Positions 8,703-32,323 of a stretch of DNA of 64,000 nucleotides are shown here, piece after piece; position 1 is the stretch's first letter, and each line of letters opens with the position of its first letter. Both the position numbers and the translations under genes were made by a program. Under the pieces are notes generated by a model. That model searched no databases. It saw only the letters and a list, made by a program, of their open reading frames with translations, and was not told the origin of the DNA. Source of the DNA: Blasia pusilla (taxonomy: Eukaryota); NCBI GenBank assembly GCA_050084515.1, contig CM114271.1, forward strand, positions 31,806,001-31,870,000, given 5' to 3'.

Positions 8703-11700
8703 TTCATTCCTCAATTCCTAGCCTATGAGACCCAGTTCTATGTCGTGTACTACTATGATGTAAGATCGTGGAGATCCCCGCAAGAAGGTATCCTTGTTCA
8801 CAATATACAAGCATAGGATTAACATGAAGTTGATAGAACTCTATTTTGTGCCCGGGTTGCTCCAAATAATATTGAGAAATTGCTTCTATAGATGCTCGCG
8901 GAGTGCATTCCGTTTCAAGTCCTAATCGCGTTCTACCACATTCCACTTTGAAGACCAAGTCACCACATCCGCAATCCACCCTATGGAACGTGTGGCTTGC
9001 AAAGCTTGATGAGGGAGGCAAGAAACATCGAGAGATCTCACCCTTCGATATAAGTGATGGTCAAGTAGAGAGCTTCAACCTCTAGAGGAAGACAACCTGT
9101 TTTTGCAAGAAAAATAGCATAAGGAGTTTGGTTTCTTATACCCAATTTTTCTTTTAGAAAGATCTTTTGCACCCTCTCCAACTTGTCTTCTTATAACTAG
9201 GGCCCCAAACTTGAGTCCCATATAAGACCACCGACAACACTAAGCTCTTAAATAAGAACTTCCTAAGATCTCAAGACACAAGATGAGCTCTTCTACATCA
9301 ATTTAAAAATGAATATAGAGCTTTGTAACCAGCTTCTATTCTCTTTTACACGCAAAGTGCCCAACTATAGTCATGAGAGAAATCAATGCCTAGATATTTG
9401 AAACACTTCACTTGTTCTAATTATAGACCTTTGTAAGAGAACGAGAATTTAGATCTAGTACCCACTAATGACTTTAAACTTCTCCATATTAACCTCTATC
9501 TGATTCTGGGTACAAAAACATGTCAAAGTGTCGAGGTGTTTTTGTAAACTAATGCCATCACGTAATATGATATCATTTGTATACAATAGAGCTTTGATGA
9601 CAAAGTCTCCAAGCATGACACCTTCACTATCACATTCCTCCAACCACTTTTTGATATAATTTATGAAAACTTCAAATAGAGTAGGGGAGAGAGGGCAACC
9701 TTGAATGACTCCAAAAGTACTTAATATCTCTTGAGTTTGTGAATCTGTGATCTTGGCCCGAACGGAATGGTACAACATGGCCACGGACGGCAACTAGTAG
9801 ATTTGATGGTACTCCAATGGTTGGCAGCCTATCCCATAACAACTTACGAGATACGGTATCAAAAGTTTTCTTGAAATCGATGAAACCACAAAACAAAGCT
9901 TTCCCATTGCCCTTAGATTTCTCCCATAAAATACGTAAGACCAAGATATGGTCAATGGTGTTGTATGTTGGGGCGAAAACCAGCTTGGACCCGTGCTCTC
10001 TTTTGGAAAGACTCTGTCCATGCGCTCAACTTTGACTCCACCAATTTCCCAAACAGCTTGGCAAAAACACTACCGACCATGATAGTGCGATAGTTTGTCA
10101 CCAAATCCTTCCTTCTTGATTTATGAATAGGAACAATCTCCTGTAGTGACCAAGTAGAAGAAAAACCATAGATAACAACATCACTCAATACTTTGGTAAG
10201 GATCGGTCCGATAGAATCTCCTCCCCACTTGAGAAGTTCAATAGAAAGACCATCCAAATCCTCATATTTGCCATTTGCTAATATTCTAAGTTGAGTCATC
10301 ATCTTTGCTTCAGAGAATAAGCCTAGTATTCCTCCACAACGCGACATAGATATAGCATGGGGAAAGAAGTAGAGCTTTTCAGCAAAAGATATCAAAGACT
10401 GGAAAGCAAGAGTAGGTTTTGAATACCATACTACTAATTGTCTTCAGAATGATTTGGGATCGTCATGGAGTTCCTTTGTTAAGGACTCTTGCTTCCGCTG
10501 CAAGAAAACTCATTTCTTGGATTTCACCAAGTATTTATAAAGGCGCGTCATGATAAGCCAACTTTGGATATCCAAAGATTTGTCCACTGACCTTAACCTT
10601 GCTTGCTTGCATTCAAAGTCAAACCAGCCATTACAAGGCAACCTCCTAGCACTTCTATTTCTGTGTCGGGAAAAGAACTTGGATGCAGTGTTTTTGAGCA
10701 ATTCGGTTAATTGCAAGCTTTCTGTCTCTGGATCAGAACTCCATATAATGTGAGTCAAGAGTTCTTGTAAATCTAGCCTATAAAGATTTTTTTTACCAAG
10801 ACCTAAGCGAAACTTCAGAGAAGCTAAAACATATTGACATGTAGAGAGAGGAATTGCCTTTGACATTGAAAGAGTAAGCAAAAAAGGGGCATGATCTGAT
10901 TCAGGATGAGGGTCTAAAATGTCAAATGTAGAGATATGAGAGCTATAAGTGGACGAGGAGAGAAGATAGCCAATGGTGCTCGCATCGGTAGAGGTGAAAC
11001 ATATATTGGAGTGAGAGTTTGGAAAATGAGAGGTTCCATTAAGAACTTTCAAATTACAAGTGGCTCCGAAAGTTAAAAAATGCTCTATCACAGGATTTGT
11101 AGAAAGATCTAAAGAGATTCAAGACCACAAACCATCCTCTGGTTTTTCTAGAAGAGGAGCAGTAAAAGAATCACTAAATTGGGTAAATTGAGCAATACGT
11201 GTACGAGCATTGAAATCCCCAACTAGAAAGACTTCACCTTTGCTTTGATATTTGAGAACATCCCCAATAAGTCGGTGGAACGGTTGACTTTGATTGTAAG
11301 TGCGTGTTGAGTAGATAGGCATGGACAGTGGTGCAAAATAACGAACTACCAAATAACAATAAGATCCCCCAACCAAACCAAGACGTAGCCAATGATATTG
11401 GCCCCCGATATCTTGATCTTCTAGTGCAAATTGGTTTTCCTTTTCTATCTCTTGCTCTTGATAGAAAGAGATATGAGCAACCTTTGTAGCTTCAGTATAA
11501 GATTTCATTTTCACTTCCAAAGTTTCAACAACCTCATGCAATTCTGAACTATTGGGAGTAGTCTCTAATGATGATGCTTTCTCTTGAACATCCACAACAG
11601 ATTTGGAAAGATCCACCATCACACTAGAGCTATCTTTCAACTCCTTTTTCAAAACCTCTAGCGTTCCTTTCAACTCTCGAATTTGAATATGTGCAAGGTT

Positions 11701-12542
11701 CAATTGAGAAGTTTGTACCTTGAATTTTTGCCGAAGCTTTTTCAATTCATGCAAGACCACTTGCATGAGATTCAAGATTTTGTCTTAAGTAGTCATCATG
11801 CAGTGGACTTCAGTACATCCCAGATATTACACGACCTCCAATCAAGTAGAGCATAAACTTCAACACCACACAACTTTTGCTCTAGGATTTTGTTGTGCTT
11901 ATAATTTCTATAGCTTGGACGTCTCCTTACATTTCACGTTTCCTCAAAATCTCAGCTTCACCTAACACTTCATGTGAAAGATATGGCCTTTGGAAGATTT
12001 AGATCTGAAATCCTCAAATGTGGAAGAGCAGAAACTCAAATCCCCCATAAATTCGTCTTTGTGACTTGGTTGGCCTTAAAATTTTCAACGCTAGGGCACC
12101 TTTTGACATTGCACGTGTCTTAAAAATATTCATTTTATGTAACACTCCACCTAAAAGATATGGCCTCCGCAAGATTCAGATGTGAAATCTTCAAATGTGG
12201 AAGAGCAAAAACTTAAATCTCTCATAACTTCATCATTGTAGCTTTTCTGGCCTTGAAATATTTAGGAATAAGGAGTATCTTTTTATTACACGTTTTCTTA
12301 AAATCTCAACTTCATGTGACACTACACTTGAAAGATATGGCCTCTGCAAGATTCAGATCTGAAATCTTCAAATGTGGAAGAGCATAAACTTAAATATCTT
12401 ATAACTCCATCTTTGTAGCTTGGTTGGCCTTGAAATTTGTAAGGATAAAGCATTTCCTCCCATTTCACGTCTCCTCAAAATCTCAGCTTCATGTGACACT
12501 TTTTCTGAAAGATATGGCCTTTGCAAGATTTAGATCTGAAAA
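8703..12542 (-). mobile_element. Degenerate LINE (CR1/RTEX-like), copy 1; 3'-truncated and internally deleted
   Basis: Contains ORF1 coiled-coil fragment, APE motifs (VGDFNART, SDHAP), RT fragments (FIDFKKTFD, QGCPLSPTLF, YTND) and RHRTGSHRLGIEE. Colinear with the copy at 27451-32323. A deletion near 11430 fuses ORF1 to APE. Confidence 0.9.
11860..12542 (-). repeat. 177-bp tandem monomers at the LINE 5' end (copy 1)
   Basis: Anchor GATATGGCCT at 11980, 12157, 12334 and 12511, an exact 177-bp period. Confidence 0.9.
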
Positions 12543-13462: not shown

Positions 13463-13566
13463 TGTCGTGCGAATCCACATTGTCATACAACATACATCGT
13501 TGACATACCATACTCACATACATACATAACATAGACGAGAGCATACACAAACACAAGTGTACCACA
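13463..13566 (-). repeat. Repeat A, terminal copy (104-bp U3-start segment displaced to the element's 3' end)
   Basis: Near-identical to 13937-14040 and the same length. Confidence 0.9.
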
Positions 13567-13575
13567 ATTGAAATA

Positions 13576-14040
13576 TGTGAAAGACCTACTGTCATAAAAC
13601 ACGTATAGAATCACATACAATCGAGCCAAACCCACTCCACGATGGGAGAATCCATGTCAAAGCTTGCAGGAACCACCTTAGCCAAGAGCTCTACTCACTA
13701 CCAAGGCTAACTCCCAACGCAAGATGCTCAACTCAAAAAACTAACTGTTCTTTGAGTGCACTCCATACTATATCCTCCAACCTAAGAGCGGGCCCTACTG
13801 GAAAAGTCACCCTCAACTGAGTAACCCCCAACCCTATGTATGAAACCGCATCTCTACTTAGACACTACCGTCCTACATAAGGTATGGCCTCTACTAGCAC
13901 ACTATACTCTACGACATAATCCGTATGGTCATGATTTGCCGTATGAATCCACATCGTCATACAACATACATCGCTGACATACCATACTCACATACATACG
14001 TAACATAGACGAGAGCATACACAAACACAAGTGTACCACA
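13576..14040 (-). repeat. Complete 3' LTR (A 14040-13937 + B 13936-13576), sense TGTGG...TCACA
   Basis: Preceded on the sense strand by the purine tract AGGGGGGCGA (14052-14043). B matches 20763-21112 and A matches 13463-13566. Confidence 0.85.
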
Positions 14041-14207
14041 AATCGCCCCCCTAACTAGCGGTTAGGTCCGTCTAACTCCCAAGTAGCCCTACTACATGCT
14101 AAACACCTTCTTGGATGCACGAATCAGAAGGCCGGGTGCTAGGTTGCCCCATCGTTAGTCGCCTATCTGTAATCCATATCACGCAAAGATCAAGTCATCT
14201 ACCTCTC

Positions 14208-14352
14208 CTAAGTACATCGAGGACAAACCCACCTTCCAGTAGGAACAACATCCATACATGGAATTAAACACATCATGTGCCAACCCCTAGAACACCGATC
14301 ACACACCAACATACGGGCTGCATTACCAACAAACCCACATAACATACACCTC
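14208..14352 (-). pseudogene. PHD finger at the integrase C-terminus
   Basis: CMLC...MLVCDRCSRGWHMMCL...VPTGRWVCPRC fits C4HC3, with the conserved Trp before the last Cys pair. Confidence 0.9.
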
Positions 14353-14631
14353 AAGCTAGCACGTATCATCGCTAAGCTTGGGTCAACAGTACCATCCACA
14401 TTTGGAAGATGACATGGCGCACAATTACGCACATGGTCCTTCCAAACAACTCCATCACGACCCCCGAAAAAATCCGAGCTGGGGACCGGTTTAGCATGTC
14501 TGTGGAAAAGTCCAACAAACATTTTAAAAATATGCAAAACTCTTCCTTACTGAAAAAATCAACCCTTTCTCTCTTGCCATTCCCTTTTGAAAATTATTCC
14601 TTATTTCTCCTCCCCTATTTAAAATTAAACA

Positions 14632-16084
14632 TCCAACATGAGAACTCCAGAAGCTAACACCTCGCGCACTCGTAAAATAGTGCGGCCTGCCGTCATATCC
14701 AACGTTGTCGGTGCAATCTGCTGCAAATAGACATAGTCCCCCACATGGAACCTACGAATCGATGGTCGATAACCTCCACCCCGAATGGTTGCATACCGCA
14801 ACGTATCCCTATGTTGAGCAATGGCAAGATTCTCAAAGGCTGTTGGCATAACTCTCCGAAAGAGCTCCGCCCGCTAAGAACACACCCTCATCCAGATCTC
14901 TGGGTCATCAAGGTTCACCACCTCACTAGACTCCCGACAATTGTTGGCAAAAGTCGGATCTCGGCCGTATAATGTAAAAATAAGGTGAGAAGGAATCCAA
15001 GGATGCTTGGCAACTAAACCTATACCCCATGGCTAACCATGGCAGCTGAATATCCCAGTCTCCAAGATGCCCCTTATGTAGGCCATACTTGCGCAATGCC
15101 CTCTTCACCGTCTGAACCACACGCTCAGCCAAACCATCCGCCTCTGGATGATCTCAAGACGTGGTCCGATGATCAATCAACGCCTTGTCACACAAGACCA
15201 AGCTCACCCAAACTCAGACTGGTCGGTCAACACTTTAGCTGGTGCACCAAAATGACTAAGCACTCTATCAAGAAACGCATACGCCGTTCTCTCACTTGCC
15301 TTGTCCGGTAATGTCACCAATTCAATCCACTTGGAGAAGTGCTCCACCATCACCAACACATATCGATGATGTCGTACAGTCAACGGTAACGGTCCCGCAA
15401 AGTCCACACTCCAACGGTAACCCAACCCCATAATAGGCAAGGGGTGTAATTGTGGTGTAGGAGCATTGAATGATGCCCTCACCCGGTCACAAACCATACA
15501 ACGTGACACCAATCGCTGCACTGAGTATGCATGCCACGCCACCAATATCGCCAAGGAGTAAGCTATACGTACGCTTTACCCCAAAATGTCCCAACTCCTC
15601 ATGGGCATGTCGCACAATGCGCTCTCTCTGAGCCAGATGTGGCACTACTCGTACTCTACCATCCTCCCACACATGGAGAATATGTGTTCCCTCCAATCGA
15701 TACCTCTTAGCACGTTGAAGAACACGGTCTCGCTCCTTGGCACTCACTATGCCTGGCACCCTACTGGTCCGTAGGAACTCCAACACCAACGCATCATCAT
15801 GAATATCACGTTGATCCGTACCACCATCTCCAACCTTAGGATCTGAAGGTTGGCCATCTACCCTCTGACTAGAGTAAGATATCATGTGGTTCTCCATACT
15901 AGAGTCCACCCCTAACCAACATAAAAAGGCGGATGCATGCCAACCTGGCACCATCTCCTCATCAACCTCGCCATGCCATCTAGCCCCAGTTGTATCCTCT
16001 TGGCTAGTACATGGGTTCCTACTCAACCCATCAGCATCAAGGTTGGCAACTCCAGGTCTATGTACCACCTGGATGTCATACTCT
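14632..16084 (-). pseudogene. RNase H C-terminal end and DDE integrase of the inner element (frameshifted)
   Basis: EYDIQVVHRPGVANLDADGLSR; HEELGHFG...CMVCDR zinc-binding region; WSVDFAGP, LTDQ..EF, ERVVQTVKRAL; FHVGDYVYL. Confidence 0.9.
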
Positions 16085-16545
16085 CCATCATTTGGGTCCG
16101 AGTGTCACCCAACAATGGAACATTCTCCAGAATGTAAGCTAGAGCACGTGCCTGATGAACCTGGAGATGTCGTAACACCCATAACATCTCCCAAAACAAT
16201 CGAGACCTAGGGTCGTGTAATCCCTCACCACGACCAGCACGTGTATGACCCTGACATGGCCATCCAACAATCACCAAATCCATAGGACCAACCCTCTCAA
16301 GGTCCTGCGCCCCCAACAATGCAATGTGTGACGGCAAAGCACGCTGGTACCCACGAATAGCTGATGGCGGCAACAACTCAGGATATCTCCGCATCAATTG
16401 ACCAATATGTCGGGATGAGACTCTCTAGGCTGTCTCATCTTGCTCCACATACACGTATCTCCGCACAGGAATACCGGCCTGCAACACTGCAGCCAAACCA
16501 GTGCTAATCCCACCAAAGATCTAGAGATCTAACACACAAATGCCC
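16085..16545 (-). pseudogene. C5 cytosine DNA methyltransferase domain (motifs I-VI), C-terminally deleted
   Basis: In frame with the protease-region ORF. Motif I: ICVLDL[*I]FGGISTG, where a 6-bp TAGATC duplication creates the stop. Motif II: YVYVEQD. Motif IV: DLVIVGWPCQG, with the catalytic PC. Motif V: LHDPRSRLFWE. Motif VI: YILENV. Confidence 0.88.
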
Positions 16546-16899
16546 TCCGGCAGATACTTCCATAAAATGGGTGTAATATCCAAAGGGGATAACCCAACTG
16601 GACCAGAAGTAGGAGTCCGCCGTGGGGCCTCCTCTTCATCGTGAGGTATAACAGCCTCACACCAAGCCTCCTGCACTAGGCAATGAGCCTCTTGCCGTAG
16701 TGCACCGCCTGAACTCCAAAGTGGCACATCCAACGATGAGGATGCCATTGCTGCAAAAATAAGGACCTCTTCTACCTCTTCATGGGCAGGAGAATCCATA
16801 GCAGAAACATTACCCTCCAAAAAGTCTCCTCGCCAAGTGACTACTCCACTAAAACCAGCCACAGATGCTAACACTGTTGGGGAAGACCCTCCTGGTCGA

Positions 16900-19250
16900 G
16901 CCCCATAAATAAATCTCACAAGAACTTGGCTCATACGTCCATCCCCGGATTGCCAACCAGGTCTATAAGACGTTGTCTCAGTCCAGTAATCCATCTGAAA
17001 ACCCATCGGGTACAATACTGCTCCTCCAACTAGTACATCATACAACTCGGCTGATGTGACTACCGCAGGTCCTCCCTACCGGGAGCTATCAGTCGCATAA
17101 TCTGGTCTCAACTGTACGGAAAGCTTCTCCCGTGTCATGAATTGAGACCTATCATTGGCTCCTCCAAGTGATGTTTGAATCTGGAATGGGCAAGGCTCAA
17201 GCTCTGACCTCCGAATACCCAAACCAACATCTTATATCCCAACATCCCTCTTCGCTGCTGCTGCCTGCCAAGTAGCACTGGTACTCAATGCTATCCCTGA
17301 CATAGAGGGTCGCTCCACCGCAACACCCTCATTCACCTCAGCACGTGTAGCAGTAACATCCCCACGTTCACACATCGTGGCTGCTAGTTGAAATACAGGA
17401 GCTAAGTCAACTCCTAAAGCCATCAGCTCCGTGGCCGAAAACAATGGGGATCCCAACACTGAAGTTGCCATCTGCAATATTGCACTGGATGGTGCATCCG
17501 TGTCTACTACACGCGATGTAGATGCCTCAGTCCCCATTGTCGGCTCAATAGGTTGCGTAGGAACCATGGATGAATTCCTAAGCACCTCAGACAACAAGAA
17601 TGACTAGGGAAGCCTAGCCTACCTCCCAGCCTCACCCTCTATGGGTCCAACTCCACAGTACCACCACGTGGCTCTGACGCTCGAGTGGCTCCTCTCGTAA
17701 CTACAGCTGATGCCTCAACCTGTACTGCACTCGCCATATAAGAGAGATCATCCCCTCCATTAGAGATGGAAGCCCCTACTCCCAAACCTGATCTATGCTG
17801 GATACAAACCATAGTAGCCAACTTTTGCTCCAACTGCTCAATCCTGGTAGCCATAGCTGACTCTGTCGTAGTGGTAGGGGTAGCCACCGTAGGCTCTCCA
17901 ACCTCTAGAGGTAGAGGTCCACCTCTACCACACCTACCACCTCTACCACCTCGGCCTCTTGGAGCTACTCCATCACGGCCGCGGCCTGATCTCAACTCTG
18001 GATGAAGATCAAAGCAACGCCCTAGAGGATGACCTGGTCTCCCGCAATGATCACACTGAGTTGGGGCCGACTGAGGCCCATCCTCCAAAGTCCGTCTCCC
18101 ATCCTCTTGGGGACAAAACTTCCTAACATGATCACCTCCACATGTCCAACATGACTGTCCTTGCTGCGGGGCAGCAAATGAAGGCAATGGTCTCTGCGCA
18201 GGTTTCCCTCTAGGACCTGACTAAGGTCGTGTGTATCCCCCACAACTCCCACTACTACTACCACCACCACTACTACGAGACTGTGAGGTGGGTTGCTGAA
18301 TACGAGAAGTAGTAGTTGTATCCCTACTGAATGCGGATGTCACCACTCTCTCCTTCACCATGTTAAGCTCAATCTTCTCAGATAGAGCAAACACATGGGT
18401 CAATGTGGGTGAATCATCACTCATAAGAGTACCATTACGTACCCTACGACGCAACTCTCTGTCCAAGATCCCATACCAAAACTGGACTGCCTGAGCCTCA
18501 GTCACACCCTGGGTAACTGAAATCAAGCGTCACATACGAGTGTATGCCTCACGAAGACTCTCACTAGTCTTTCGCTCAAATTCCTGAAGACTCCTCAACT
18601 TCTCTGTCTTCACTCCTTGATAGTTCTTCTTCAACCTCTTGAAGAACTCTGCAACCGGGTTGAATGATGGTGGGGCACTAGTACCTCCACTAGTACCTCC
18701 ATGGGTACCTCCACTAGTACCCCCACTCCAGCTTGTACTCGTACCACTCAACGTCAGACTGACTGGCATAGTAGGAGCACTACTACCAATACCACCATGG
18801 GTGATAGACATATAGCCTGGAGACCAATATTGTCTCCACGCCTCAATCTCAGCAACATGGTCCTTCCTAAACTCATGGTAATCATCCATGGGTGGTCCCT
18901 CCAAGTGCTGAAACAACCCCTTCCAAGCCAAGAAGGGTGTAAACAACGTGGCGTTCCGCAACATCTGCATATCAAACCACGTATCAAAGTCCTAAATGAA
19001 GTCCTCCAACTCAATGATGCTCACTGCACCCGAGTATCGTCATGGGCCCTTCATGGCCCCATATATCCCATCCATGTCCCAAATCAATGGAGCTGCAACA
19101 CTCGATAACAACGTAGAAGACTCGGTGTCTGGAACACCCTCGTCCTCCTCTTCATCAACCGTCGGAAGTGGAAAAGGTAACCGATACCTCAATCCACTCC
19201 GTGTGAAACCACTATTGTCTGCACCACGGTCCCCAACAAGACAGCTCCGT
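16900..19250 (-). pseudogene. gag and aspartic-protease remnant of the inner element
   Basis: Capsid-like region (QHLEGPPMDDYHEF, ESLREAYTRM), knuckles CWTCGGDHVRKFC and CDHCGRPGHPLGRC, RGG-rich tract, and protease C-terminal YDVLVG. No catalytic DSG/DTG is visible. Confidence 0.8.
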
Positions 19251-20743
19251 CATGACCAACGCCGATGCCGAACCACCACTAAATTACCACCACTAAGTAA
19301 CCAAGTGACGTCGATGTCGCTGTACTATTCTAGCTCTACTAGCTATGGGTGTAGGCAACCTAACCTATCAGCACCACAAGAAGCCTCCCAAGGTTTACTC
19401 GTCATCACTCTAGCCTCACTACCGATAGTACACAAGAGTAACACTACTCTGGAAATCAACGTCAACCCTAACAATGGGCGCACAAGCAAGAAGCAACGAC
19501 AGAGGGGATCCAAACACATGAAGTCCAACGACAATCCTCCAATCGCAAATGGAAATCAAGGTAATACAATCCACCAAACGTGGCGCCCCCTGAATCCAAA
19601 GAACCCATCACACAATTCTAACGCAATAGCTACTCCATAGCGGGTCGATGATGTGCTAGTCGGACTCGCAGCATCTGAAAATATCATCTGCATGGAGAGG
19701 CTACACCATACTATGTGCTAGAGGTCCATCAACCAAAAAACTTGAGATGCATAAAGCGCCTAAAACATCTCCGAACAACACCAAATGAGATACACCAGTG
19801 TGTACACTCGCATAGTTAAGAACTCAGCAGTTAAGCGTCTTCCAGGTAGAATAGCCCAAAGATGGATGACCAGTTATGCAACACTCAAATCACAAATCTT
19901 GCAAAAACTGCCTCACGCCCAAGCTAGGAAGCTTGCTTGCTTGCTCCTTGCTCCTTGCTCCTTACTCCGCCTCTCATGCCCACTCGCCCCGAGCTACCAC
20001 GAGTTGCCTCAAAGCCTCGCTATGGAGAGAGGCCCAACCAAGGTGCCCCAAACGGAATAGGCGTCTCCAACAACGAACGAGTCACCAACCAACCAGCCCC
20101 TCCGATTCGCTGTCCACCATAGCTATTCTGCTAGTTCTATTCATAGACCTTGAGCTAGTCCGCAAAATTTTGATCAGTTATTACTCCACAAATCCTCAAC
20201 CAAAATTGAATCTGTTTCAACCAGAATTCAATTGACCACCATAGCTATCTCTCCACAAAAAATCAACTACAACCAAGCTCTGTACTCTGAGCTAAAAATC
20301 AGACAAACTTGTTGTCCATACACCTCTAGAATCGCAAATCCGACAGCGCTTCGGCCCAAATTCATGCACGTAGAAATCCGCAACACTCTCCACACTCAAG
20401 CAGATAGCTTCACATGAGATCACAATACAAGTAGCAACAGGAACCTCTCACCCGATCTAGATGAACTTCAACACAGCTTCCGCACTCCAAGCTCTCCACA
20501 TCGGAAAACCGTCGAACACGAACCAGCATCTTCAATCCTTGATAACTTCCAACTCCCTTGACGAAATCCGGCGATCTAAAGCGCATTGGAAAGCTCTCAG
20601 CAAGGCGCTTCTTTCCCAATCAACCACGTACCAGATTCCCACCTCCAACATAGGCCACAAGCCATGAACATCCACGGCTGAGTACACAATCAGCCATAAC
20701 CAGATCCTACTGATCCACAATCGAAGCTACCGTCCATCTACTC

Positions 20744-20754
20744 TAGTTCTTTGA
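20744..20754 (-). promoter_or_regulatory. Putative self-priming PBS
   Basis: Sense TCAAAGAACTA lies 8 nt after the 5' repeat and is perfectly complementary to TAGTTCTTTGA (20930-20920) inside that repeat. No TGG tRNA-type PBS is present. Confidence 0.6.
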
Positions 20755-20762
20755 CTAAAATC

Positions 20763-21112
20763 CGTGAAAGACCTACTATCATAAAACACGTATAGAATCA
20801 CATACAATCGAGCCAAACCCACTCCACGATGGGAGAATCCAGGCCGAAGCTTGCGGGAACTACCTTAGCCAAGAGCTCTACTCACTACCAAGGCTAACTC
20901 CCAACGCAAGAGGCTCAACTCAAAGAACTAACTTTTCTTTGAGTGCACTCCATACTATATCCTCCAACCTAAGAGGGGGCCCTACTGGAAAAGTCACCCT
21001 CAACTGAGTAACCCCCAACCCTATGTATGAAACCGCATCTCTACCTAGACGCATAAGGTATGGACTCTACTAGCACACTATATTCTACAACATAATCCGT
21101 ATGGTCATGACA
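20763..21112 (-). repeat. 5' repeat B (LTR lacking its first 104 bp)
   Basis: 350 bp; aligns to 13576-13936 with one 11-bp indel and scattered substitutions. Confidence 0.9.
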
Positions 21113-21840: not shown

Positions 21841-24800
21841 TACAGGGGGAAGAGGGTAGCTCTTCCTAGAATTTCCGAGCAAAGTTGGCCTGCTGCACAT
21901 TGCGCTGATTGGATTAGGCATGTTGGTTGCCATCTTTCCCTCTCAAGACTTGGCCTACGTTGAGGACCCCTTTTTCGTCTTTGTCAACGACTATCCTTAC
22001 CGCTGTTCTTGTTGTTCGCTTGATTTCCGCGAAGCCGTCGTCCTGTTTCATCCGTTGTATTTCCACAGATCCCTCGTGCTGCCGCCGACGTAGTCCCTAT
22101 CGTAGCTTTCCAGAATCCTCGGCGCTTGACTTGCTGCCGACACTCTTTTCTCGTCGTTACGGGCCGTTGTTCCGCAGATCTTTGCCTTTGGCCCTAGGAA
22201 CCGTTAGTTTCCATCCTCTATCGTCTGATCTCGTTGCTAAGGTGACGGTTATGATTAACGGTTGCCTACTGGAGAATTTATAGCTTTGCCACGCATTCGG
22301 GCAACGATGGTAGATGACATGTTGATTGATGGTGTCAGAGTGTTTGTCCCGCTTTGCTATGTTTTGTGAGTGGTAGCCGCTCAATGATCAAGTACTGTGC
22401 CGTGACGCCTGTAGCCGTAATGTGCCACTAGGGGAGTATATATGACTTGCTGATTGTAGGAGTTTTGTCTTCGCGACCAAGTTGGGGTTGAGGTTTGCAG
22501 TTGTTAAGATATGACATTGAAATTTTTTCATGTTATCCATTTCGGGCTTTTACCCTACTCGTGTGGGAGAATTTTCGAGTATTTGGCAGTTATTTGGGGA
22601 TATTGGGTTTCGTGCAGATGTTGAGAGCATTATTGATGTATGGGGTTAGGGAACATAGACATGTGTGGGATGTCTAGAGTTGTGGGTATGTCCTATTGAT
22701 GAGACGATAGGAGAGGAGGCTATTTGCAGCACCACGTCGCTAATTGTTGCATAATACATGTTTCAATGAGAGGGAGTGTAGATTGAGTATCATCATATGT
22801 TTGAGTTGAGTGATTGAGAGATTACTCATGAGATTGAGAGTGGTCATGCAAGAGGAACACGAGGGGCATCATGGCATCCTTTCGGGACTTTGAGAGGCAG
22901 GGTGGTGGACCTAAGAGTAGCTCTAGAGGTTTTACGGGGAGTGGCACGAGGTTTTGAGGGTCTCCACGTGAGGGACCGCCTTGATCACCTTATATGTTGT
23001 CCTCAGACAAGGCGGAGGGCGTAGAGGACTTTTTTAGTGATTCACCACACCCGTTGAGTGGCCCTATTTCTTGGGCGTATGAGATGGACCACCGGGATAG
23101 AGGACCGCCTAGGTTTCCGGGAGTGGTAGGCACGATAGGGTTGCATGACTTCATTGGGGAGTTAAGGAGTTGGTGTGATTCACAACCGGCTAGGATTTCT
23201 AGAGAATCCAACCCATTCACAATATGGAACGGCATTCTCCAACATTCTAAGGGAGCATCCATGGACAATTACCATGAGTTTTCCTGGAAGTATACGCATG
23301 AGATTAAGGCTTGGAGACTCTACTATGACCCACATTATGTGTCATGGACTGAGCTATTTCCAAATGAGGAGGAGGAGCTAGAAGAGGCTACTTCCTCTGC
23401 CACTAGTGATGTGCTAGGAGAGGTGACTCGGACTAGAGCACTTGCATCGTCTAGTCGGGTTTATCTTAGGTTCAACCCCGTGGTTGAGTTCTTTGCGGAG
23501 TTACAAAGGAACTACAAGGGGTACAAACTGAGAAGTTGCGGAGCACCCACGACTTCCATAGGCGCACGAATGAGAGTTTGCGTGAGGCATTCACTTGCTT
23601 GCATTGATTGATTAGCGTCACTTTGGGAGGCGATAGAGGCCTAGGCTATCAAGGCATGGTACGCAATGCTGGAACGAGACGTGTGGAAATAAGTGAGGGA
23701 TGCGGTACTTCTTATGCGCACCTCACCTACATTGAGAGATGTTTTTGAGATGGAAGAGTGTATTGAGCGCAATATGGCTGAGGAGAGCGTAGCAGCCATG
23801 GGATCACGTGTGAGAGCCTAATTTCCTACACTATCAGATTTTGGGAGAGGACTTTGGCGCCACGAGCTCAAGGAGGATATCCAGAGTTTGTGCTAGAGAG
23901 ACCTACGCCATCATATGCGTCACAATAGCAACACCCACGGATTATTTGTTGGGCATATGGTGGAGCCCATCACGAGCGGGATCATCACGATAGTGGACGC
24001 GTGCCTCAACCTGGAGGAGGAGATGGGTTCGCACCAAAAGTTTACTTGTGTGACCATTGTCGGAGGTATGATCATACACGCGCTAGGTGTTTTATATTGA
24101 AGATTGAGTTATAGTCAATCTCATGAGATACCTCAACTGCTATATTTGGTACTCACACGAAGTAGGGAAGCTTAATCTTGGTTAGTCAGTTAAGCGCGAT
24201 TATCTTAACTAGGGTTAATTAAACACAATTAGTATAACTCGAGACTATGGTTAAGATTAGGGTTAGGGTTGCTTGTACATACCTTATATAATTGAGAAGG
24301 GGACTAGCCTCCACTCATTCTCTCATTGCAAATTTTGTTCTCCATGGTGGTGTGTGTGTGTGAGAGTTGTTTCCAACCATTTATGCTTCTTTAGCAGTTT
24401 TCCACATGGTATCAGAGCAATAGAAGAATATCACTTGAAATTCCTGGTGTTTGAGGAGAGAAGAGAGGCAAGAGAAGGCACAACTTCAATTTGGGAGAAG
24501 GAAATTTTGTTCAAAGTTCAGTGGATGCAAATTTCAGATGGAGCTTTGACCGTGATAAAACTTTGGAGACGTTTTTTAGGGCTTTCCCGGTCGATTTAGC
24601 CATCTAGGTCTGCAGTGGCTAAAACCATTCCAAAGGCTAGTTCTATATGTCTTGTAGAGCTTTTTGAGAGCTTTCCAATGCATCCAAAATCGCTCGATTT
24701 TGACATTATGAGCTCCTGCACTAGCAATTTCAGTGTAGGAAAGTGCAATTAGTGAAGAAAAGTTTTGCAATTTACTCTCTACAGGCCAATTACGACTAGT

Positions 24801-25863
24801 TCTTTCATACATTTGATCAATTTTGGAAAATTTTAGGTTGATTTCTCTGTTGGAATGATCTATGCTCAATTAGAGTAGTAGAGAGCATGAAATTACGTCT
24901 TTGTGAGTGAAATCGTATGTCATGGAGTATTCCTTAACAACATTCATAAGCGAGAAGCTAGATAAGCAGAATTATAATGTCTGGAAGTTTCGCATGAAAC
25001 AATTTTTCATAGGTCAAGAATTATGGGAGCTTGTTATAATTGATGAGGCCAAGCCAAAAGGTGACTCAACAGACTTGAATGTTCGCACGTGGAACAAACG
25101 CACAAGGCAAGTAATCCACTACATTTCAATAACGATCAGTTCGCCAATGATAGGTCACATTCAAGATGTTAATACTCCGAAGAAGGCCTGGGATGCATTG
25201 GAAAATTTGTTCTTGACATCAACAAAGGCCAAAAAGCTTCAATTGAAACAACAATTGAACGAAGTGAAGAAAAGATCGCAGAGCATCAATGATTATATTT
25301 TGAGTATCAGACATATTGTTGATCAGTTTAATAGCATTGGAGTGACAGTAGAAGATGATGATCTCATTTTGTTCACTCTTCAAGGCCTTCCAAAGGATTA
25401 CAAGTCCTTTGAGACCTCTATCTCTGTGAGAGAGAAGTATCCAACCTTTCAAGAGTTAGTCCCACTGTTAATAAGTGAAGAGATGCGCCTAGTAGGCAAC
25501 GGTAGCTCGTCTAGTCTCCAAGAGAGTGCGCTATTTGCAGGTTATGGATCAAACAAAGGCAGAGGTCGTGGCAAGAGGTTCTACGGTCGTGGTGGATATC
25601 AAGCATATGGAGAAGAGGCACTCAATATAGCGTCACTCAATCAACAACGAACCAATACCATACAGAATCACAAGGTGGTGATGGTGGAAATCGTTGGGGT
25701 CGAGGTCAACAGCAAAGGATCTCTGGATCTTGCAATTACTGTGGGATAAAGGGTCACTATGCAAAGTTTTTCTTCAAGAAGAAGGCAGATATGAGAACAA
25801 GAGCCTTACAGAAAAAAACTATGTGGAGCAACAACACCATATCACGCATATCGAAAAAAATAA

Positions 25864-26118
25864 CCCTGTTCTACTATCTTTCCTACAGAGATCAGGTTTC
25901 TTGCAATGGTAGGAACATAGAGAATATTTCCAACAGCAAAAAGACCATCCGATGCTATTGGAACTTTACCGGTATGCGTGATATGACACTCAACATCATA
26001 TCACGCATACCGGTAAAGTTTAAATAGCATCGGATGGTCTTTATGCTGTTGGAAATGTTCTCTATGTTCCTACCATTCCAAGAAACCTGATCTCTGTAGG
26101 ACACATAGTAGAACAAGG
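25864..26118. repeat. Long inverted repeat: arms 25864-25986 and 25996-26118, 9-nt loop
   Basis: The left arm is the reverse complement of the right arm with few mismatches. Absent from copia copy 2. Confidence 0.92.
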
Positions 26119-27000
26119 ATATCAAGTGAAGTTTAATGCAGATGGTTGTTTCATTGAAACAATCGATGACCAGACTACGATAGCCAAAGTAACTAGATCT
26201 AGCAGAATGTTCAAATTAGATGTTTTTATGCTAGAGATTCAAACAACATTGTATGGTCAAACCGGCCAACAAGTCACAGATCTAAATGTGTGGCATAAAA
26301 GAATTAGGCATATGAATCTTCAAAGATTACAGAGTCTTTCATCATCTAATATAGTAATATGACTCCCTAAATTAGCGAGTCCTGCTACGTTAGAGATATG
26401 CCTTGCTTGCCAATTTGGAAAACAAGCTAGATTTCCTTTTCCAAAGCAAGGTAGAAGAGCATCCAGGATATTGGAATTGATCCATAGTGATGTGTTGACA
26501 GCAGCATCACAACATAGCCTTAGTGGTTGCCAGTACTTTGCTTCATTTATTGATGACTTCTGTAGATATATATATGGGTATACTTTCTGAAAGGCAAGTT
26601 AGAGGTATTCTAAATGTTCCAAACATTTAGAGTTCTAGTAGAGAAGCATATCGGAGAAAACATTTTGAAATTGCGTTGTGATGGAGGAGGAGAGTATCTT
26701 TCAACAAAATTTGATGACTGTTTACGTCAGAATGGCATCCTACGTCGAGTGACTTGCCGTTACATTCCACAACAAAATGGAGTGGTTGAGAGGAAGAATT
26801 GACATATTGCTGAAGCGGCACGAGCTATGCTGAATGAGAAGAACATGCCTAAGGTGTATTGGATAGAGGCTGTAGCATGTGTAGTCTTCTTAATCAACCG
26901 AACTCCAAGAGCACGAATTCATGATAAAACTCCATTCAAAGTCTTCACAGGAAGTAAACATGATTTTTCCTTCTTGAAAGTACTTGGCTGTATTTGTTAT

Positions 27001-27070
27001 AATGGTAAATGGTAAATGGTAAATAGATCAAGCCCGTGGGACCCAAAGGGTCAAAAGGCTGAAAAACACA
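27001..27070 (-). mobile_element. 70-bp 5'-truncated LINE 3'-end insertion
   Basis: Matches the 3' terminus of the LINE at 27451+, including the (GGTAAAT)3 tail. Flanked by a TTAT duplication. Interrupts the copia CY/AHVP sequence. Confidence 0.9.
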
Positions 27071-27450
27071 TTATGCTCATGTTCCTTTTGAGAGGTGTCA
27101 GAAATTAGACCCCAAGTCTGAAAGATGAATCTTCATTGGCTATGCTGATGGAACTAAGGGGTATAAGTGCTACATTCCATCCTCTAGGCAATTTATTATT
27201 AGTCGCGATGTTGTCTTTGATGAGCTAAAGTCATGGTATGCTTTATCTGAGCCTATTCCACCTCTAAACTTGTCTGTTGAGGGGGAGAATTAGACTGTAA
27301 ACCAACAGACATTGTCTTCAACTTCCCCAAGTACTAGTGCAAGATTAGGATAGGTCCTAGATTCATCAGTTAAACCTGCGAGTCCATGGATGGGAAGAGT
27401 ACGTATTTAGTCTGGTGACACTAGTGAGAGCTCAAGTTAGATGTCACATG

Positions 27451-30400
27451 GTAAATAGTAAATGGTAAATAGATCAAGCCCGTGGGACCCACAGGGTCAA
27501 AAGGCTGAAAAACACATAACAAGTCATTTATTCAATAGCCCAGAAAAACATCCTAAAGACCTTCTCCTGGCTACTGCCTAGAGCACTTGAGTAATGAATA
27601 ATGACGTCCCTAATATACCAACCTAAATCATAAGGCACTAGCTGTAGTAAAGAATAGAAATTCTCCACATCTATTTTATGAGCTAGTCTAATCTCTTCAT
27701 ACCTTCGACATGTAACAAACACATGCTCTTCATCCTCAATATTTTCTCCGTCACATAATCTACAAATTCGTTCACTTCTATCAAGATTAAACCATCGTCC
27801 TTCCTCAATTCCTAGCCTATGAGACCCAGTTCTATGTCGTCCGATAATATGACGTAAGAACGTGGAGATCCCTGCAAGTAGGTATCCTTGTTCACAATAT
27901 ACAAGCATAGGATTAACATGAAGTTGATAAAACTCCATTTTGGTGCCCGGGCTGCTCCAAAGAATGTTGAGAAATTGCTTTTGTAGATGCTCGAGGAGTG
28001 CCATCGGTTTCAAGTCCCAATCGCGTTCCGCCACATTCCACTTTGAAGACCAAGTCCCCACATCCGCCATCCACCCTATGGAACGTGTGGCTCGCAAAGC
28101 TTGATGAGGGAGGCGAGAAACATCAAGAGATCTCACCCTTGCGATGTAAGTGATGGTCAAGTAAAGAACTTCAAGCTCTAGAGGAAGACAACATGTTTCT
28201 GCAAGAAGAATAGCATACGGAGTTTGGTTTCTTACACCCAATTCTTCTTGGAGAAAGATCTTTTGCACTTTCTCCACGCGCTCCCAACTTGTCTTCTTAT
28301 AACTTAGGTCCCATATAAGACCACCGGCAACACTAAGCTCCTAAATAAGAATTTCCTAAGACCTCAAGACACAAGATGAACTCTTCTACATCGGTTTAAA
28401 AATGAATATAGAGCTTTGTAACCAGCTTCTACTCTCTTTTGAACACAAAGTGCTCAACTATAGTCATTAGAGAAATCGATGCCTAGATATTTATAACTCT
28501 TCAATTGTTCTAATTTTAGACCTTTGTAAAAGAACGAGAACTTGGATGTAGTACCCACTATAATGATTTTAGACTTCTCCATATTAACCTCCATCTAATT
28601 CTGGGTACAAAACCTTGCCGAAGTGTCGAGGTGTTTTTATAAAATAATGCCATCACGTGCTAGTAATATGATATCATCTGCATACAATAGAGCTTTGATG
28701 ACAAAGTTCCCAATCTTGATACCTTCACTATCACATTCCTCCAACCACTTTCCGATATCATCTATGAAAACTCCAAATAGAGTAGGGGAGAGAGGGAAAT
28801 CTTGAATGACTCTGATGGTACTCAAGATCTCTTGAGTTTGTGAACCTTTGATTTTGGCCCGAACGGAGTGGTATAACGTGGCCATGGTTGCTAGGAGATT
28901 TGGTGGTACTCCAATGGTTGGCAGCCTTTCCCATAAGAGCTTACGAGGCACAGTATCAAAAGCTTTCTTGAAATTGATGAAGCCGCAAAACAAAGCTTTT
29001 CCATTGCCCTTAGATTTCTCCCATAAAACACGCAAGGCCAAGATATGGTTGATGGTGTTGTATGTTGGACGAAAACCAGCTTGGACCCGTGCTCTCTTTT
29101 GGAAAGACTCTGTCCATATGCTCAACTTTCACTCCACCAATTTCCCAAACAACTTGGCAAAAACACTACCCACCATGATAGTGCGATAGTTTGTCACCAA
29201 GTCCTTCCTTCCAGATTTGTGAACAGGAACAATCTCCCATAGCAACCAGGTTGAAGGAAAACCATAGATAGTAGCATCATCCAGTACTTTGGTGAGGATC
29301 GATCCAATACAATATCCTCCCCACTTGAAAAGTTCAATAGAAAGACCATCCAAATCCTCACATTTACCATTTGCTAATCTTCTTAGTTGAGTCATCACCT
29401 CTGCTTTAGAGAATAAGCTAGGTATTCCTTCACAACGTGACATAGATGTAGCGTCAGGGAAGAAATAGAGCTTTTCGGCAAAAGATATCAGAGACTTGGG
29501 ATCAAGAGTAGATTTTGAAGACCGTACTACTAACCGTCTCCAAAATGATTTGGGGTCCTCATGCAGATCCCTTGTGAAGAACTCTTGCTTCCCCCGCAAG
29601 AAAGCTCGTTTCTTAGATTTCACCAAGTCTTTGTAAAGGCTCGTCATAATAAGCCGACTTTGGATATCCAAAGATTTATGAACTGATCTTGCCCTTGCTT
29701 GCTTGCATTCAGAGTCAAACCACCCATTACAAGGCAGCCTCCTAGCACCTCTGTCCCTGTACCGCGAAAAGAACTTAGATACAGTATTGTGGAGCAATTC
29801 GGTTAGTTGCAAACTTGCCGTGTGTGGATCTGGGCTCCATACAATGCGAGTCAAGAGTTCTTGTAAATGTAGTGTATAAAGATATTTTTTACCAAGATCT
29901 AAGCGAAACTTGCGAGAAGCTAAAACAGATTGAGATGTCAAGAGAGGAATTTCCTTTGAAAGTGAGAGAGTAAACAAAAGAGGTGCGTGATCTGATTCAG
30001 GTTGAGGTTCTAGAATATCAAATGTAGAGATAAGAGAGCTATTAGCGGGTGGGGACAAAAGATAATCGATGGTGCTAGTGCCGGTAGAGGAGAAACACGT
30101 ATTGGAGTGAGAGTTGGGAAAATGAGAGTTTACATTAAGGACTTTCAAATTACAAGTGGCTCCGAAGGTTAAAAAATGCTCTGTTAAAGGATTTGTAGAG
30201 AGATCTAAAGATATTCTAGACCACAAAACATCCTCATGTTCTTCGAGAAGAAGAGAAGTCAAGGAATTGCTGAATTGGGTAAATTGAGCAATACGTGTGC
30301 GAGCATTGAAATCCCCAACTAGAAAGACTTCACATTTGCTTTGATATTTGAGAACATCCCCAATAAGTCGATGGAACGGTTGACTTTGATTGTAAGTGCG

Positions 30401-32323
30401 TGTTGAGTAGATAGGCATGGACAGTGGTGCAAAATAACAAACTGCCAAATAACAATAAGATCCCCCAACCAAACCAAGACATAGCCAATGATATTGGCCC
30501 ACGATATCTTGATCTTCTAGATGTATGAGAGGTAGAAATTGAGACCTGATGAAAGTAGCAATACCGCCATAACCCCTTCCTGCCTGTTGCCTTCTTTGGT
30601 TCCATGTCGATCCCACCAAAGTAAACCCTTACATCTCTGTAATAGTATTGCTCTCATGTTCCCAAGTCTCCAAAATATTGATGATGTCCGCCATCTCCCA
30701 AATTGGTAGAGCACTCACATACTTTGTTGTTGAAAGACCTCGTATATTCCACATGAACACTCTTAGCTTCTTGGATTGCTAGGTTGATAACTCTCTTTTT
30801 CTCTAGGTAACAAGTGCTCGACCATCGCGTAGATAAGCAATAAAACCTGCTTCTTGAGCCTCTTTAACCTTTGCAAGCTTCTTTCTCCTAGCTTTGACTT
30901 GTAGAGGTGTAAGATCAAGATCCAATCATATCCTCCATCCTTTGCTAATAGCCTTGTTAGCCATGGCAGTATCACGTTGAGTTTGATCAACAAACTTAAC
31001 TAGAATGGCACGAGGTTGTGTTCTCGTTTTCCCAATATGGAAAGCTTGAGCCAAGTCCGGGTTATGAACATGAAGTATATCAACCAAGAACTTGGTGACA
31101 AAACTCTTCACCTCTTTGCTCTCTGTTTCTGGCAAACCTGAGATTCTCACATTCTTTCTACGGGAAAATTGGTTTTACTTTTCTATCTCTTGCTCTTGAT
31201 AGAAAGAGATATGAGCAACCTTTGTAGCTTCAGCATAAGATTTCATTTTCACTTCTAAAGTTTCAACAACCTCATGCAATCTTCAACTATTGGGAGTAGT
31301 CGCTAATGAAGATGCCTTCTCTTGAACATCCGCAATAGATTTGGAAAGATCGAGCATCACACTAGAACTATCTTTCAACACTTTCTTCAAAACTTCTTGC
31401 GTTGCCTTTAACTCTCGGATTTGAATATGTGCAAGGTTTAATTGAGAAGCTTGTACCTTAAATTCTTGTCGAAGCTCTTTCAATTCATGCAAGACCACTT
31501 GCACTAGATTCAAGATTTCGTCTTGAGTAGTCATCATGAAGTCGACTTCACAACATCCCAGATATTGCACGACCTCTCATAAAGTATAACCAAATCTCCA
31601 ACAACACACCACTTCTGTTCTAGAATTTGGTTATACTTGAAATTCTCACAACTAGGGCACCTCTTAACACTCCACGTTGTCTCAAAATCTGAGCTTCATA
31701 TGACACTCCAACTCAAAGATATGGCCTCCGCAAGATTCAGATATGAAATCCTCAAATCTAGAAGAGTAGAAACTCAAATCTCTCACAACTTTGTTTTTGT
31801 AAATTTTTTGTGCTGAAAATTTTGAGGGCTAGAGCGCCTTCTTACACTCCACGTTGCCTCAAAATCGCAGCTTTATATGACACTCCACCAAAAAGATATG
31901 ACCTCCGCACGATTCAGATCTGAAATCCTCAGATCTAGAAGAGTAGAAACTCAAATCTCTCACAACGTCGTTTTTGTACATTCTTTGTGCTTGAAATTGT
32001 GAGGGCTAAGGAGCCTCTTTACATTCCACATTTTCACAAAATCTTAGCTTCATAGGACACTCCACATCAAAGATATGACCTCCGCAAGATTCAGATCTGA
32101 AATCCTCAAACCTAGAAGAGCAAGAACTAAAATCTCTCATTACTTCGTGTGTGTAACTTGGTTGTACTTGAAATTTTTAGGGCTAAGGCACCTCCTCACA
32201 TTCCACGTTGACTCAAAATCTCAGCTTCATATAACACTCCACCTCAAAGATATGACCTCCGAAAGATTTAGATCTGAAATCCTCAAACTTAGAAGAGCAG
32301 AAACTCAAATCTCTCACAACCCT
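27451..32323 (-). mobile_element. Near full-length LINE (CR1/RTEX-like), copy 2
   Basis: ORF1 ~31540-30763 (coiled coil + RISGLPE...RAILVKF). ORF2 has APE (WNIRGL, GDFNART, TIDY, SDHAPL), RT (YADD) and a C-terminal RICRLC..EDEEHVFVTC motif. (ATTTACC)n-like tail; CATG flanking duplication; several frameshifts and stops. Confidence 0.93.
31600..32320 (-). repeat. 177-bp tandem monomers at the LINE 5' end (copy 2)
   Basis: Anchor GATATGRCCTCC at 31718, 31895, 32072 and 32249, an exact 177-bp period. Confidence 0.9.

Follow-up and report, generated by a model that had tools for sequence, protein, structure and literature searches.

How can a retroelement that encodes a DDE integrase carry the split direct repeats of a tyrosine-recombinase element? 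In the textbook classification split direct repeats go with tyrosine-recombinase elements and two identical long terminal repeats (LTRs) with DDE-integrase elements, and the question is raised by an insertion in a 64,000-nt stretch of Blasia pusilla DNA (assembly GCA_050084515.1, contig CM114271.1, forward-strand positions 31,806,001 to 31,870,000), the whole of which was analysed and is called the window below. The element lies at 21112-13463 (7650 nt) on the minus strand, and all its coordinates are window positions read on that strand. It consists of a long repeat (L1), a body of ~6.7 kb, a G-run, a short GT-rich repeat (S1), a second long repeat (L2) and a second short one (S2), as listed in Table 1. 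We hold, with slightly better than even confidence, that it is a decayed, internally deleted member of a streptophyte Ty3/gypsy lineage with a C5 cytosine DNA methyltransferase (DNMT) and a PHD finger, and that the integrated form of this lineage is normally L-body-S-L-S.

An earlier note on this DNA, in which L was named B and S was named A, had described a B-body-A-B-A arrangement in the A1-body-B1-A2-B2 order of PAT/Ngaro-type elements, with a polypurine tract before the complete LTR and a 5′ LTR made of B alone. Alignment of the repeats confirmed L1-body-S1-L2-S2, and hence the PAT/Ngaro-type order is present; over the 7650 nt the element strand has a single G6 run (14051-14046), 5 nt before S1, and this is the candidate polypurine tract. 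The description of the 5′ LTR holds in that L1 is not followed by a full S, but homology between the 5′ and 3′ copies continues past the end of L. After a length difference of 34 nt, where a 38-nt stretch of the 5′ spacer faces only 4 nt of the 3′ copy, it resumes at TTC(G/A)ATTGTGG (20725-20715 compared with 13572-13562), and thus the 5′ repeat also holds the first 5 nt of S. The leader sequence concerned, TTCGATTGTGG (20725-20715), agrees with the L2/S2 junction at 10 of 11 positions, and nine bases (13575-13567) separate the LTR end given in the earlier note from S2. TTGTGG alone is common to three sites, namely the 5′ leader, the L2/S2 junction and the sequence behind the G-run. An identical 9-mer on both sides of the body was ruled out, the copy beside the G-run having one extra T. 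L1 (21110-20764) and L2 (13934-13577) differ by 14 substitutions in 346 ungapped positions and one 11-bp indel, and S1 (14041-13937) and S2 (13567-13463) differ at 6 of 105 positions, all of them transitions. The divergence of the two pairs is alike (Fisher p = 0.43), which fits all four repeats having arisen at one insertion. No further copies of L or S are present in the 64-kb window. Within L1 there are a TATA-like motif, ATATAG (20960-20955), and a hairpin (20944-20918).

The insertion went into the pol gene of a related gypsy element as a single unit, with a target duplication of 4 bp (TTGG) or 5 bp (ATTGG). With a slash at the element boundary, the left end reads ATTGG/TGTCATG and the right end CACGACA/TTGG. 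Without the element and one TTGG, the host sequence is ...DVIGAR..., and its alignment to three of three homologues (two Marchantia proteins and the insert's own paralogue) is gapless, and therefore the duplication is real; if TG and both copies of TTGG are retained, there is a 2-residue insertion against the same three proteins. The host alignment by itself also permits a 6-bp duplication with one mismatch (TTGGTG/TTGGAG). The flanking duplication of 4-5 bp and the restored host frame noted before are in this way borne out, and the 6/7 inverted repeat proposed for the outer ends extends to 10/14 when the first 14 nt are compared with the reverse complement of the last 14, the terminal bases being TG...CA. 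TG...CA, inverted repeat and duplication are together what a DDE integrase leaves when it inserts a linear DNA that begins with L and finishes with S. The true LTR ends are nevertheless ambiguous, because two units each carry classical marks: the S-L unit (14040-13576) has TG...CA ends, an 8/14 inverted repeat and the only G6 run 5 nt upstream, and the L-spacer-S unit bears the target duplication, TG...CA ends and the 10/14 inverted repeat.

The boundary between S and L reads CA-AA inside the element and CA/TG at its outer ends, just as the earlier note had cautioned. The joined outer ends are collinear with the internal S1/L2 junction, except that they have TG where the junction has AA and that three transitions occur within the final 8 nt of S. 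The differences cluster (5 in 10 nt compared with 17 in the remaining 443 nt). This clustering was considered as a sign of separately inherited ends and dropped, because the three differences in S are transitions, located at CpG or CHG-type sites as read by eye, and a mutation hot spot can explain them; TG versus AA is the sole difference left without explanation by that account. The host element lies in the same orientation as the insert. Its left flank is 60-65% identical to the Marchantia relatives P0005 and P0007 (tblastn) and is truncated upstream of ~21840, and its right flank, with 69% DNA identity to the insert's own integrase region, ends at 12541, where it is interrupted by a 177-bp tandem repeat.

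The reading frames of the insert are broken many times, and its content was recognized by domain matches and by alignment to relatives. The gag-like region (19219-17618), which has no Pfam match, is broken by stops and frameshifts, and its CCHC motif was read by eye from the open reading frame (ORF) translation; a 12-nt tandem repeat in three copies (18681-18725) encodes a Gly/Thr/Ser-rich run in this region. Between the protease-like region and the integrase there is a Pfam match to a C5 methyltransferase (16283-16095; PF00145, E = 5e-08). The predicted DDE integrase is indeed encoded, with an H2C2 match at 15633-15556 (PF17921) and an rve core at 15419-15219 (PF00665), and no tyrosine-recombinase family matched at E ≤ 0.01 among the 66 element ORFs scanned on both strands (at least 45 aa on the element strand and at least 50 aa on the opposite strand). 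Because split repeats, a DDE integrase, a clean duplication and TG...CA ends occur together in one copy, the layout is not dependent on the recombinase. Overall, the interpretation given in the earlier note is partly supported.

Gypsy-type reverse transcriptase (RT) gave no RVT_1 match in the element ORFs. In tblastn alignments residues 1-534 of Marchantia P0005 match 17567-16077 and residues 1097-1189 match 16083-15676, and residues 535-1096 are absent; the gap at ~16080 shows that RT and the greater part of RNase H have been lost from this copy, along with the rear of the methyltransferase. We read the absence of RT as a deletion in a single copy and not as a trait of the family, as the relatives keep RT at this place. 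If the internal deletion at 16077-16083 were older than the insertion, this would be a non-autonomous copy that had been moved in trans.

The DNMT fragment gave 55 protein matches of 50-84% identity. Organism names are attached to 19 of them, every one a bryophyte: 14 are from Marchantia polymorpha, 3 from Calypogeia fissa and 2 from Sphagnum. MARPO_0091s0058, Mp_4g09160 and Mp_8g17980 are examples of the M. polymorpha gene models matched in the analysis. The lineage is broad: its named relatives are gypsy polyproteins of bryophytes, Closterium and Klebsormidium. Domain order varies among them, with DNMT ahead of RT and RNase H in the Marchantia relatives, protease, DNMT and RT in this order in the Closterium relatives, and RT, RNase H, DNMT, integrase and PHD in a large set of proteins that includes algal ones. 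Proteins with the full DNMT domain were seen in Marchantia, Calypogeia, Sphagnum and Closterium (P0005, P0007, P0067, P0065). Among solved structures the best match of the Marchantia relative is DNMT3A, a weak one with E about 2e-4. RT-RNase H(-integrase) proteins of Klebsormidium nitens have 47% and 40% identity with the Marchantia relative, and linker motifs of the window recur in them.

The split-repeat layout on a gypsy element is not new, as the relevant passages of one paper contain a precedent. These passages of de Mendoza et al. (2018, PMC5890265) report Dnmt3-type methyltransferases within the Pol ORF of an LTR gypsy element of K. nitens, define the DIRS layout as A-coding region-B-A-B, and in the legend to Fig. 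4c describe 'KnitGypsy-Dnmt3' as a combination of DIRS-type repeats with gypsy domains. As far as these passages go, KnitGypsy-Dnmt3 is characterized by a gypsy polyprotein, an internal Dnmt3-like DNMT and A-coding-B-A-B repeats, and all three are found in the Blasia element. The two differ in that the named relatives of the Blasia copy are from bryophytes, Closterium and Klebsormidium and not from Klebsormidium alone, and in that the Blasia copy lost RT and most of RNase H; this comparison is one of descriptions and not of sequences. The text passages on KnitGypsy-Dnmt3 make no mention of target duplications, terminal TG...CA or a PHD finger. The same passages place the charophyte DNMT acquisition in the K. 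nitens lineage, and the bryophyte and Closterium matches suggest a spread much wider than that lineage. In the literature searched the name KnitGypsy is confined to PMC5890265, and searches for gypsy elements with split LTRs, for circular permutation and for green-algal gypsy found nothing relevant. For split direct repeats combined with Gypsy and integrase, the titles and abstract openings concern DIRS/tyrosine-recombinase or Penelope-like elements, general reviews and a curation guide.

The precedent, together with the DNMT fragment in the Blasia element, shifts the odds toward a family-wide layout and away from a single accident. The family-wide reading rests on this precedent and on the unlikelihood that a random break would produce clean integrase-type ends, and the layout is probably typical of the lineage more than a one-off. 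In such a lineage the L-spacer-S unit would act as the LTR that the integrase defines, and the G-run before S1 may mark the start of plus-strand synthesis; with that start, the ends made by reverse transcription and those used by the integrase would be offset by the length of S. The internal S1/L2 abutment would be the counterpart of the joined termini. The offset could come from a tandem-LTR or circular intermediate that is cut at the S/L site, or from template switching at the shared TTGTGG.

Several observations weigh against a family-wide layout. It is known from one copy. The first ~180 nt of L1 are upstream of any promoter inside L1 and should be recopied from L2 in each cycle, and despite this expected recopying L1 begins with TG whereas L2 is preceded by AA, an awkward difference that fits none of the readings well. 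The classical reading, with S-L as the LTR, can likewise point to TG...CA, to its 8/14 inverted repeat and to the G-run. From K. nitens only DNMT-less RT-RNase H proteins were retrieved and no protein with a DNMT domain, and therefore kinship with KnitGypsy-Dnmt3 rests on shared features and not on alignment. Moreover, no primer-binding site was identified by the initiator-tRNA-Met motif, tRNA genes, leader complementarity or folding. The initiator-tRNA-Met site has 7 matches in the window at no more than 2 mismatches, none of which is within 13463-21112, and exact or 1-mismatch matches lie solely beside copia LTRs; the copia elements of the window thus have this primer site, and none was found in the gypsy element. 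There are no tRNA genes in the 64-kb window, and the leader has no stretch complementary to the start of L.

An 11-nt complement does exist between the leader, TCAAAGAACTA (20754-20744), and L1 at 20930-20920, 30 nt after the TATA-like motif. Self-priming by this pairing, in the style of Tf1, was set aside and is a lead only, as the minimum-energy fold is without the pairing and the structure is not above that of shuffles (z = -0.38). Rfam gave a single sub-threshold match (24.4 bits against a cut-off of 100).

Alternatively, the family might be an ordinary one with S-L LTRs (and a short tail), and the present copy a permuted insertion that occurred once, from a two-LTR circle or tandem-LTR complementary DNA (cDNA) opened at the S/L boundary of the leader-side LTR. 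A two-LTR circle opened at the A/B boundary, as a family-wide strategy or a one-off, was the inference of the earlier note. A G-run is expected where U3 begins, and it directly precedes S1; the S-L unit is bounded by TG...CA with the 8/14 inverted repeat, S2 follows L2 after only 9 nt like a circle junction with few extra bases, and the start of L1 and the end of S2 correspond to the same LTR position, with no base lost or gained if the duplication is counted as 4 bp. However, both LTRs of one cDNA share a template, yet the outer left end has TG where the intact junction has AA, and ends with TG...CA and a 10/14 inverted repeat, beside a clean target duplication, are not expected from an arbitrary internal cut. 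The same layout is moreover reported, in the passages cited above, for another DNMT-bearing gypsy element, and its recurrence by chance is unlikely. We consider such a single event improbable.

A rearrangement after insertion of an ordinary element, with L-spacer-S as its LTR, seems just as improbable. The 5′ LTR would have lost S by a small deletion just after TGTGG, and the extra S1 before the 3′ LTR would stem from a separate duplication or be a long-standing family trait, a course that takes two separate events, each with its breakpoint where S begins. As this explanation would have it, the outer ends show all the classical marks (target duplication, TG...CA and inverted repeat), and the spacer is retained in the 5′ copy together with the first 5 nt of S (TTCGATTGTGG), as though S had formerly run on from there; small indels did happen in this copy, as seen from the 11-bp indel in L and the 34-nt length difference in the spacer. 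The GT-rich S may also be likened to a U5 region. Set against this, the sequence before L2, which is the end of S1, is not purine-rich and the only G-run precedes S1, neither a remnant of the S end nor a primer-binding site follows TGTGG in the 5′ copy, and by its divergence S1 is not younger than the remaining repeats (p = 0.43, on small counts). An assembly artefact, with a repeat as the place where reads of separate family copies were joined, is conceivable in a region that is a transposon nest with many repeats, and we regard it as very improbable: the repeat pairs differ by 4-6%, which speaks against a collapse of identical copies, the element is bordered on both sides by one host gene whose frame is restored, and S2 spans only 104 nt, so that its L2 junction is near its junction with the flank.

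Compared with known systems, the Blasia element shares with PAT-like, Ngaro and DIRS elements the A1-body-B1-A2-B2 order, in the form of L1-body-S1-L2-S2, and differs from them in encoding a DDE integrase, with no tyrosine recombinase found, and in its target duplication and TG...CA ends. DIRS-type elements are not known to have a target duplication or TG...CA ends. With plant Ty3/gypsy elements it shares gag, a protease-like region, a DDE integrase downstream of RNase H, TG...CA ends, a G-run before the 3′ repeats and a target duplication of 4-5 bp. It departs from them in its DNMT and PHD accessory domains and in that its 5′ end is L only (with the first 5 nt of S) and its 3′ end S-L-S, instead of two LTRs of the same unit. 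Where re-use of two-LTR circles by an integrase is reported, the cut is at the LTR-LTR junction and normal ends are restored. The L2-spacer-S2 abutment resembles a U5/U3-type junction of a retroviral two-LTR circle with few extra bases, but the break in the Blasia element would fall ~105 nt inside an LTR. Both 4 and 5 bp are described as usual target duplications for plant lineages in PMC6317226.

That split repeats are the normal integrated form throughout the streptophyte DNMT and PHD gypsy clade is a tentative extension, which we regard as possible though somewhat unlikely. If it is true, the integrase acts on ends that are offset by ~100 nt from the plus-strand-priming ends, one route to which is the cutting of tandem-LTR or circular DNA at an internal TGT...ACA site, and the clade would be a working link between LTR-type and DIRS/PAT-type organisation in which a DDE enzyme replaces the tyrosine recombinase. 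If the layout is common to the lineage, its members would together with the Marchantia relatives provide a tractable system for the making and integration of permuted genomes, and these methyltransferase-bearing elements would be mis-annotated by standard LTR finders, because such programs look for two identical LTRs. A single degenerate copy with a published precedent is a useful lead and not a discovery.

Table 1. Features of the insert, its host element and the neighbouring copia elements (window positions)
Feature	Position	Strand	Basis or remark
Left target-site duplication copy	TTGG 21116-21113; ATTGG 21117-21113 if 5 bp	-	read; empty-site alignment
L1, 5′ long repeat	21112-20764	-	starts TG at 21112-21111
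5′ spacer and leader start	20763-20715	-	alignment of 5′ and 3′ copies
Gag-like region, CCHC-type knuckle	19219-17618	-	tblastn, 51-63% identity to Marchantia relatives
Protease-like region, then N-terminal part of C5 cytosine DNA methyltransferase	17600-16077	-	Pfam, tblastn
RNase H tail, then DDE integrase	16083-14600	-	PF17921, PF00665; broken by frameshifts
PHD finger, C-terminal end of integrase region	14348-14214	-	PF00628, E = 2.6e-08
Polypurine-tract-like AGGGGGG	14052-14046	-	read; G6 count
S1, internal short GT-rich repeat	14040-13937	-	followed by AA at 13936-13935
L2, 3′ long repeat	13934-13577	-	aligned with L1
L2-S2 spacer, ten bases: A + TATTTCAAT	13576-13567	-	read and aligned
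S2, terminal short repeat	13566-13463	-	ends CA at 13464-13463
Right target-site duplication copy, TTGG	13462-13459	-	read; empty-site alignment
Host left flank: RT C-terminal part and RNase H of related gypsy	21837-21109	-	PF17917, PF17919; tblastn
Host right flank: linker and integrase	13462-12544	-	alignment, tblastn
Copia LTRs	24095-24406; 58483-58797; 63449-63760
Copia gag	24907-25749		PF14223

An alignment of 24 algal-type relatives was used as a profile query against contigs filed under bacterial genomes or metagenome-assembled genomes and gave 67 loci (L001-L067) that encode eukaryote-type gypsy polyproteins and are most likely eukaryotic contaminants or mis-binned sequences. None of the 22 loci of at least 3.5 kb in this search has the DNMT segment. 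L002-L004 are of the PHD type, without DNMT and with no LTR pair seen, and L002 and L003 are 99.4% identical though filed under different organisms. A protein atlas search gave nothing useful. Past the PHD finger, the C-terminal 300 columns of the alignment of the 24 relatives contain the motifs LDPWAG and DAVV..PP and by eye look like a second, different methyltransferase fold.

Elsewhere in the window, a segment of ~3.8 kb occurs twice in direct orientation, at 8704-12541 and 27798-32320 (87% and 81% identity). Part of it is a tandem array of 177-bp period (12001-12541), and this array cuts off the host gypsy element at 12541. Two adjacent ORFs at 10510-11784 on the minus strand have no Pfam match and may encode an endonuclease region of the long interspersed nuclear element type, an unconfirmed assignment made by eye from a DFNAR-like motif. 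A third gag fragment of the broad gypsy lineage lies on the opposite strand at 23063-24111 (+) and is 30-37% identical to gag regions from Marchantia; at 24094 a copia LTR cuts it off. Copia-type elements are located at 24095-27444 (+) and 58483-63760 (-), and in both the initiator-tRNA-Met primer site comes right after the LTR, exact at 24407-24418 and with 1 mismatch at 63437-63448.

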